The notes under the pieces were generated by a model, which searched no databases, was not told where the DNA came from, and worked only from the letters and a program-made list of their open reading frames with translations. DNA of 64,000 nucleotides from Escherichia coli (GTDB taxonomy: Bacteria; Pseudomonadota; Gammaproteobacteria; Enterobacterales; Enterobacteriaceae): assembly GCF_011045215.1 (NCBI RefSeq), contig NZ_CP049201.1. The stretch is one strand, 5' to 3'. The position numbers and the translations under genes are program-made. Positions 52,578 to 53,168 of this stretch are shown here, one piece after another (the first letter of the stretch is position 1; the number at the start of each line of letters is the position of its first letter).

Positions 52578-53030
52578 CCATATAACCCGTTATCTCTTTC
52601 TCAAGTTTTTATATTAGCTGTACTTGTAATAAGCAACATATCCACGTAACACCTCATGTTCAAAATAGTTCCCCATGCTAGATAAGTTCACAATTATCGA
52701 TACAAAAAATTAAATTTAATCAAAGTGTTATTTGTATAATTCTTAAGCCGTTAAGAAATTTTAATCTATTATTTTTTTAATATTAATTAATGCCTGTTAA
52801 TTTTTTCTTTAGTATAACAGTGTATTTTTTAAGCTTGTTATTCATTGATTAAGTAATAAATCTGGAAATTTGTCTTTGTTTTGAGGCTAATGAGTGGTTT
52901 TACATAACCGCCTCTATACGCTGTTGATGAATAGTTCTTATGAATAAAGATATCCAGTTCATACTTTAAGTGAAAATTGATAAAGTGCGATTCGTATTGT
53001 CTTTTATTCTAAAGACATCGAGTGTAGTTA

Positions 53031-53168
53031 ATATTCCTTGTAAAAACAGGGATAAACCGAACTAGTTAAAGTTTTTATTATGTTCCCTGCATCAGCGGGG
53101 ATAAACCGGACTTGTTATCATTTTTTAAGTTGTCGAACTTATGTTCCCCGCGCCAGCGGGGATAACCA
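53031..53168 (+). CRISPR. Degenerate CRISPR mini-array (about three decayed repeats, one 32-bp spacer)
   Basis: atattccttgtaaaaacagggataaaccg (53031-53059), atgttccctgcatcagcggggataaaccg (53080-53108), atgttccccgcgccagcggggataacca (53141-53168); spacer 53109-53140. Confidence 0.7.

Follow-up and report, generated by a model that had tools for sequence, protein, structure and literature searches.

Between queE (also named ygcF) and ygcE, a 64,000-nt stretch of Escherichia coli DNA (hereafter the window) carries a type I-E CRISPR array and, beyond a tract of AT-rich DNA, a short run of decayed repeats. The locus raises the question of what this second run represents: an independent array with a leader of its own, as was proposed in the initial annotation, or the downstream leftover of an array to which its neighbour also belonged. 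The order of elements in the window is queE, a leader, the five-repeat type I-E array, 453 bp of AT-rich DNA, the mini-array, and ygcE. According to the ORF list and the RefSeq annotation of orthologous loci, queE lies on the plus strand and ends at 51966. Leader 2.3 of the CRISPR-II locus, described in PMC3903273, extends from the queE stop to the first repeat (51967-52304, plus strand), is AT-rich, shows 93-94% conservation by BLAST in E. albertii and in the divergent Escherichia genome E69, and contains a promoter-like site found by promoter scan (TTGGTA-16-TAAAAT, 52249-52276). The main array, CRISPR2.3 (52305-52577, plus strand), has five repeats and four spacers, the last repeat being degenerate (CCAGTGGGG...ACCA). 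Because the leader sits on the queE side, this array would be transcribed from the plus strand, and the mini-array has the same orientation.

On the other side the locus is bounded by ygcE, a gene for an FGGY-family carbohydrate kinase on the minus strand (53215-54693; ORF and RefSeq annotation of orthologous loci), whose stop codon at 53215-53217 leaves a gap of 45-46 nt from the last repeat, slightly less than the 47 bp stated previously. This gap holds a G+C-rich inverted repeat (53182-53207), which from its sequence is probably an old terminator hairpin common to the convergent queE and ygcE genes; a similar hairpin is present in an Escherichia locus without CRISPR (L036). No further CRISPR repeats occur elsewhere in the window, which ends approximately 9 kb past ygcE, and an Rfam scan of 51900-53300 returned only sub-threshold chance matches to Chlorobi-1, located on the real repeats. 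In K-12 the cas-E operon lies about 25 kb from queE, and the two CRISPR loci have been described as 24 kb apart (PMC4489801).

The mini-array is, with little room for doubt, CRISPR2.2 of the E. coli type I-E CRISPR-II locus, which has been known since 2010. The name is that used by Diez-Villasenor et al. 2010 and repeated in PMC3903273, PMC3737337 and PMC4489801; under another nomenclature the same repeats form the distal part of "CRISPR2" (Touchon & Rocha 2010, PMC2886076; PMC10910852), and published descriptions designate the whole ygcE-ygcF region as the CRISPR-II locus. The mini-array nonetheless looks unannotated, because RefSeq annotation usually marks CRISPR2.3 alone. CRISPR2.2 is left unannotated by standard pipelines in most E. 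coli genomes and will therefore keep being "rediscovered"; it is a real but ordinary element, and matters little beyond correct annotation.

Repeats and spacers of the mini-array

The mini-array has the structure R0-S0-R1-S1-R2 and occupies positions 53031-53169, with three type I-E repeats whose degeneracy rises towards queE. The initial annotation of a decayed second mini-array, with three degenerate repeats, one 32-nt spacer and one 20-nt spacer, holds in its quoted sequences as well as its coordinates, and corresponds to the published CRISPR2.2. The terminal repeat of the whole CRISPR-II locus, R2 (53141-53169, plus strand; ATGTTCCCCGCGCCAGCGGGGATAACCAT), matches the consensus at 24/29 positions and has a degenerate 3' end (GATAACCAT). 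R1 (53080-53108, plus strand; ATGTTCCCTGCATCAGCGGGGATAAACCG) likewise matches at 24/29, its changes falling at consensus positions 1, 2, 9, 12 and 13. Both repeats differ from the 27-nt core repeat by 3 mismatches each, a level of matching that did not occur once in 100 shuffles of the window. R0 (53031-53059, plus strand; ATATTCCTTGTAAAAACAGGGATAAACCG) is a heavily decayed but full-length repeat, matching the consensus at 18/29 positions and R1 at 22/29, and it keeps an exact 11-nt 3' end (GGGATAAACCG). Its local score was reached in 1/2000 shuffles of the AT-rich region (P ~0.0005). Decay of R0 relative to the consensus consists mostly of C>T and G>A changes, and R0 and R1 have several substitutions in common, namely AT at positions 1-2, T at position 9, and A at position 12. 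Sharing of this kind is also expected from leader-proximal duplication in an independently active array.

Between these repeats only one spacer of canonical length (32-33 nt) remains, the 32-nt S1 (53109-53140, plus strand; GACTTGTTATCATTTTTTAAGTTGTCGAACTT; 28% G+C). The short spacer or gap S0, between R0 and R1 (53060-53079, plus strand), is only 20 nt long with 20% G+C. Aligned in register, the opening 17 nt of S0 and of S1 agree at 12 positions, while none of the 319 17-mers of the AT-rich core reached 12, the maximum being 10; a gapped global test of S0 against S1 was not significant (P = 0.12). A repeat search found a 49-nt tandem unit at 74% identity. S0 is probably a truncated and diverged copy of the start of S1, and because of the in-register match and the tandem unit, R0-S0 as a whole most likely arose as a partial duplicate of R1-S1 that has since decayed, and not by independent acquisition, the evidence for this being moderate.

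All three repeats are predicted to form a Cas6e-type 7-bp hairpin (R1, -12.1; R2, -15.1; R0, -7.9 kcal/mol), in each case with the fold of the consensus repeat. R0 and R1 have the 8-nt 3' handle AUAAACCG intact, whereas that of R2 is degenerate. In R0, the hairpin is kept via two compensatory C-G to U-A transitions, a pattern with a probability of about 0.2 under transition-only decay. Because R1 and R2 retain the Cas6e hairpin, a read-through transcript of R1-S1-R2 could still give one canonical 61-nt crRNA carrying S1. No role is indicated for such a crRNA.

Distribution of the locus and conservation of S1

Loci fetched through YgcE and compared by BLAST place the mini-array within the history of the whole locus. 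In Citrobacter, Enterobacter, Klebsiella, Raoultella, Cedecea and relatives, queE and ygcE are convergent and adjacent without any CRISPR, on which basis the CRISPR-II locus would be an acquisition of the Escherichia lineage; one Escherichia genome, the aforementioned L036, also has no CRISPR at the locus. Leader 2.3 and the flank occur in E. whittamii, E. albertii, the B2 strain Nissle and strain PT62, with one repeat between them in E. whittamii, three in E. albertii, and two each in Nissle and PT62. Published work describes the same reduced state in B2 strains such as LF82, which keep only a two-repeat CRISPR2.2-3 (PMC2941450). The last repeat in Nissle, PT62, E. whittamii and E. albertii ends in ...GGGGATAACCATT(C/T)AGG, as does R2, and the terminal repeat and flank are partly present in MOD1-EC7003. 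This ending, the same across Escherichia species and B2 strains, marks R2 as the ancestral terminal repeat of the locus. The AT-rich DNA is found, along with R0 and S1, in E69 and in non-B2 E. coli, among them the phylogroup D strain 042; B2 E. coli, E. albertii and E. whittamii are without it. None of 5426 complete E. coli genomes has a match to the E69 copy above 80%.

Comparison with other E. coli, as had been proposed at the outset, found the same locus in most of the species. The 637 bp at 52578-53214 are present at 94-99.8% identity in 4123 of the 5426 complete genomes (97.6% in K-12), and S1 is 100% identical in 4048 of the 5426, about three quarters, in one place per genome. The content of the mini-array is frozen: strains with added spacers were not found, the variants seen being deletions only. 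O157:H7 strain F8092B lacks R1-S1, and E69 (L007) lacks S0-R1, retaining the same R0 sequence and S1 with 2 substitutions. The spacers of CRISPR2.2 have been termed "invariable" in the literature (PMC4489801).

A BLAST search with the remnant spacer, another step suggested in the initial annotation, returned no credible protospacer in phage or plasmid collections. The best phage matches covered 24/27 positions at E >= 0.3, and full-length matches in the plasmid set came only from three misfiled E. coli chromosomes of 4.8-4.9 Mb, the rest being short and partial. A second, self-directed target of S1 is likewise absent from E. coli genomes, with a median of one place per genome.

Such invariance could be taken as a sign that the mini-array is kept by selection, with an S1 crRNA, or the DNA itself as a platform for H-NS and RNA polymerase, serving a cellular role, for instance in regulation, and not defence. 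The identity of S1 in 75% of E. coli genomes extends across phylogroups with different cas variants, and Touchon and Rocha have speculated that conserved spacers are either intrinsically stabler or more strongly selected (PMC2886076). The predicted hairpins kept in R1 and R2, the two compensatory changes that preserve the hairpin of R0, and a tract of 300 bp at 52860-53140 that is identical across four diverse strains would also fit such a role. Nevertheless, S1 has no second match anywhere in E. coli genomes, the array has been lost without replacement in B2 and other strains, and natural lineages have deleted R1-S1 or S0-R1. The compensatory pattern in R0 has, as noted above, a probability of about 0.2 under transition-only decay. 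Conservation between E. coli and E69 is moreover lower here, at 86% for the right half of the AT-rich DNA and 88% for the mini-array, than in the flanking genes and leader (queE, 90%; ygcE and leader 2.3, 94%), the left half of the AT-rich DNA standing at 68%. Maintenance by selection thus seems very improbable, and persistence of the mini-array by descent is the reading followed here.

The AT-rich DNA between CRISPR2.3 and CRISPR2.2

The stretch following CRISPR2.3, described at first as about 450 bp of AT-rich sequence, measures 453 bp (52578-53030) with 27% G+C, and individual 150-nt windows fall to 20%. Its first part is not uniform non-array DNA. After the last recognisable repeat of CRISPR2.3 comes a stretch of spacer length (32 nt; 52578-52609, plus strand), whose homologue in E69 is 33 nt long and is followed by a decayed repeat. 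The corresponding repeat in the window, Rx (52610-52638, plus strand), is decayed beyond recognition in E. coli and is placed here through its homology to E69 in alignments. In E69 the sequence GTTCCCTGTATCAGC (L007 7027-7041, minus strand) begins exactly 33 nt past the last intact repeat and matches R1 at 14/15 positions, a score reached in 0/1000 shuffles (P<0.001); Rx is recognisable in this one lineage only. Shared substitutions had also been considered as a reason to group Rx and R1 in one sub-array; this argument is weakened and suggestive at most, because an intact E69 repeat carries C9>T too and T13 belongs to the published K-12-type consensus.

A second decayed repeat, Ry (52666-52694, plus strand), contains the repeat-like fragment at 52665-52686 that had been picked out in the initial annotation. 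Taken in this window alone, the fragment is borderline (local gapped score 9, P = 0.007-0.015), and support for it comes from comparison between strains: ungapped, Ry matches the consensus at 15/29 positions here (P = 0.05), 16/29 in LH50-c (P = 0.013) and 17/29 in K-12 (P = 0.0007), and the orthologous site is the best match in the region in every strain tested. Ry is a polymorphic hot spot among strains, and fold prediction finds no hairpin left in it. Judged by these alignments, Ry is a genuine decayed repeat, and the first ~117 bp of the AT-rich stretch are best described as two decayed repeat-spacer units, Rx and Ry. Neither these units nor the relationship between S0 and S1 were found in the accessible CRISPR2.2 literature, though the original 2010 description may contain them; they are minor additions to a known locus.

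The remainder, a non-coding core of approximately 336 bp (52695-53030) with 20-33% G+C, has no ORF longer than 31 aa. A promoter scan found 7 sites against 4.2 +/- 1.9 expected. Positions of about 52757-53103 in the window probably correspond to promoter island 2901670 of K-12, a mapping that uses in part the U00096.2 coordinate of the ygcE stop; it is self-consistent, as the neighbouring island between queE and ygcG lands on the AT-rich region upstream of queE. This island (2901670_347; 347 bp) was reported between ygcE and queE in K-12 by Panyukov & Ozoline (2013, PMC3661553), where it was H-NS-bound in all ChIP data sets considered.

The reading under which CRISPR2.2 was once a separate array, with the AT-rich DNA as what is left of a leader that drove transcription and spacer insertion at R0 and R1, draws on the position of this DNA. 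It lies immediately upstream of the mini-array, which has the same orientation as CRISPR2.3, and in K-12 the region counts among those dense in promoter-like signals (PMC3661553). The derived substitutions common to R0 and R1 look as if a leader-proximal repeat had been copied, and a scan for the IHF consensus gave one match in the region (52718-52730) and one in leader 2.3, the former coinciding with the best local match to leader 2.3 (TTTAATCAA.G.GTTA, 14/16). This site lies 300 nt from R0, however, and about 0.1 such matches are expected by chance in DNA so rich in AT. Alignment to the main-array leader, as had been suggested previously, and to the leaders of K-12 CRISPR2.1 and of the Klebsiella spallanzanii I-E array gave similarity within the shuffle distribution, for the AT-rich DNA of the window as well as that of E69. 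Type I-E leaders diverge beyond recognition (PMC2886076), and since they do so quickly, missing similarity is not decisive taken alone. The junction ...TTTAGAG|repeat, common to all three real leaders, is nonetheless absent upstream of both R0 and R1, and a simple promoter scan found no plus-strand promoter-like site near R0. The spacers are invariant, the AT-rich region is missing from E. albertii, E. whittamii and B2 strains, and published descriptions name leaders only for CRISPR2.1 and CRISPR2.3 (nomenclature as in PMC3903273). Array remnants also flank the core on both sides, with Rx and Ry upstream of it, which argues against the core being the leader of an independent array. An independent array with its own leader consequently appears improbable. 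The earlier description of a fossil array stands, given the frozen S1 and the decayed repeats; the accompanying leader remnant is not supported by the sequence comparisons, which found neither leader similarity nor a junction.

Within a single former array, two origins of the core can be weighed. The core may have arrived as a foreign AT-rich insertion of about 0.34 kb in the ancestor of non-B2 E. coli and the E69 lineage, then silenced by H-NS, leaving CRISPR2.2 as the downstream leftover of a split array. A contiguous array with the same terminal repeat is present in B2 strains and in other Escherichia species, decayed repeats lie on both sides of the core (Ry on the left, R0 on the right), and acquired DNA is typically bound by H-NS and extremely rich in AT; Touchon and Rocha treat the stretch as a large non-coding sequence inside CRISPR2 (PMC2886076). 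Against this, no homologue or donor of the core was found in phage or plasmid collections, it has no insertion-sequence ends, target-site duplication or ORF, and its absence from B2 strains and other species is equally explained by deletion between repeats, which is demonstrable at this locus.

Alternatively, the entire 0.45 kb could be an array of about seven units decayed by AT-biased mutation, with CRISPR2.3 and CRISPR2.2 as its recognisable ends. Rx and Ry are decayed repeats within the first 117 bp, the decay of R0 is mostly C>T and G>A, the spacers of CRISPR2.2 are AT-rich themselves, and Ry and R0 are spaced 365 nt apart here and 366 nt apart in K-12, equivalent to 6 x 61. In E69 the spacing is 382 nt, however, and a search between the two repeats for remnants recurring every 61 nt came out negative, the register anchored on them ranking 23-49 of 61 in five sequences; high-scoring register offsets of 59-60 (58-60 in O157) arise from touching R0 itself. 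It is also hard to explain how the middle of an array could have reached 20-30% G+C while the flanking repeats stayed 83-100% intact. Decay of the whole stretch is for these reasons quite doubtful. A foreign AT-rich insertion that split one array is slightly favoured, tentatively and with less than even confidence.

Proposed history and related systems

In type I-E adaptation, new spacers are integrated by Cas1-Cas2 with IHF at the leader-repeat junction. Such a junction is present at CRISPR2.3 and CRISPR2.1, and we infer that CRISPR2.2, having none, no longer acquires spacers; its frozen, drifting content would follow from the lack of a junction at which Cas1-Cas2 and IHF could insert. S1 is an old spacer that has become fixed in most E. 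coli outside B2. The ~0.45 kb up to CRISPR2.3 would comprise the two decayed units Rx and Ry and the ~336 bp of AT-rich DNA, all inside a former single array. CRISPR2.2 would persist by descent and erode by point mutation, while recombination between repeats would trim it, as in O157 F8092B and E69, or remove it, as in B2 strains. A bolder version may be put forward, in which the 0.5-kb sequence splitting CRISPR2 is itself partly, perhaps wholly, eroded array, CRISPR2.2 and CRISPR2.3 survive as opposite ends of a single ancient array, its middle worn away or overwritten during AT-biased evolution beneath a coat of H-NS, and S0 is a truncated duplicate of S1; as a whole this conjecture is rather unlikely. 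The locus offers a view of array death, with a terminal repeat found genus-wide, one spacer fixed in most of the species, repeats worn down progressively through C>T and G>A changes, and trimming by inter-repeat recombination.

Likeness of the core to the H-NS-bound promoter islands of K-12 resides in its extreme AT content, whereas that class concerns the AT-rich core and not the repeats, and the H-NS data come from K-12. An AT-rich, H-NS-bound core inside an array is a minor point on how promoter islands arise. Stand-alone mini-arrays are also known that produce regulatory CRISPR-like RNAs. CRISPR2.2 resembles these orphan arrays in having two or three repeats, a position far from cas genes and a conserved spacer, but differs in that no partial self-target of S1 was found and in that the array is dispensable in many lineages.

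The decayed leader-distal ends of arrays provide a closer parallel. According to Touchon & Rocha, 86-100% of loci have modified terminal repeats (PMC2886076), and as in such ends, the last repeats here have degenerate 3' ends and the oldest units are common to strains. The tail of the present locus differs in being interrupted by ~336 bp of non-array-like DNA, with the better-kept R1 and R2 lying beyond. With regard to type I-E (repeat cluster 2), the mini-array has direct repeats, a canonical spacer and a predicted hairpin, and lacks a recognisable integration-competent leader, variable spacers and a protospacer match in mobile elements. Like published CRISPR2.2, it lies between ygcE and ygcF/queE at a distance of about 0.5 kb from CRISPR2.3 and has type 2 (I-E) repeats, three in number, and two invariable spacers, with no leader described. 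Nothing substantive separates the two, the differences amounting to a few SNPs relative to K-12, for example in Ry and at one loop base of R2.

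Conservation along the AT-rich DNA

Between the CRISPR2.3 array and the decayed mini-array CRISPR2.2 (R0-S0-R1-S1-R2, 53031-53169) lies AT-rich DNA (52578-53030), the two halves of which differ in conservation. The stretch of about 280 bp from 52860 to 53140, spanning the right half of this DNA together with R0-S0-R1-S1, is 100% identical among the window, LH50-c and K-12, the sole exception being a single K-12 SNP close to its left edge; O157 F8092B is also identical here, except that R1-S1 is missing. The left half, in contrast, carries many differences among these four strains, O157 F8092B especially, and comparison with the divergent Escherichia E69 reproduces the contrast, with 68% identity in the left half versus 86% in the right.

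Variation within repeats and reading frames opened by them

The decayed repeat Ry (52666-52694), in the left part of the AT-rich DNA, is a polymorphic hot spot when the window is compared with loci L001, L002, L006, L088 and L089, with at least six variable positions in about 20 nt giving at least five haplotypes, while the surrounding DNA is otherwise 95-100% identical among the compared strains. This polymorphism could stem from gene conversion with intact repeats or from a mutational hot spot. An otherwise intact CRISPR2.3 repeat of E69 (L007, 7137-7165, minus strand) carries a C9>T change (GTTCCCTGCG), which yields a G-U wobble; because the same change is found in R1, R0 and the decayed repeat Rx (52610-52638), this stem position of the repeat varies recurrently. 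The ATGs at the 5' ends of R1 and R2 open mechanical plus-strand ORFs of 77 aa (53080-53313) and 68 aa (53141-53347), respectively, both running antisense into ygcE and almost certainly meaningless.

Gene content and deletion beside the locus

Gene content is polymorphic directly beside the CRISPR-II locus, upstream of queE, where the source strain has minus-strand ORFs of 200 and 307 aa (49613-51122). At the corresponding position, LH50-c, Nissle and O157 F8092B have an annotated LemA-family gene adjoining queE, followed in LH50-c by a TPM-domain pseudogene, and PT62 and OkiPb01688 have yqcG and ygcG. E. coli OkiPb01688 (L005, 2501-3700) also carries an IS1 element about 60 bp inside the AT-rich sequence and lacks all DNA from that point through ygcE, yqcE and further, up to ygcU; this is therefore an IS-mediated deletion that took out CRISPR2.2.

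Leader 2.3 and a Klebsiella array

Leader 2.3 (51967-52304) contains a motif of about 19 nt twice, GTAAAGTTTGGTAGATTTTA at 52136-52155 and GTAAAGTTGGTAGATTGTG at 52244-52262, with a spacing of about 108 nt; the latter of the two overlaps a promoter-like site (TTGGTA-16-TAAAAT). The pair was spotted by eye and was not reported by the automated repeat search, probably owing to a 1-nt indel between the copies. Klebsiella spallanzanii (L035, 9730-11040, minus strand) has an I-E array of 22 repeats, the repeat being essentially that of E. coli, located about 2.5 kb past queE rather than in the queE-ygcE interval. The end of its leader, ...ATGTTTAGAG|TGTTCCCC, resembles that of E. coli leader 2.3.
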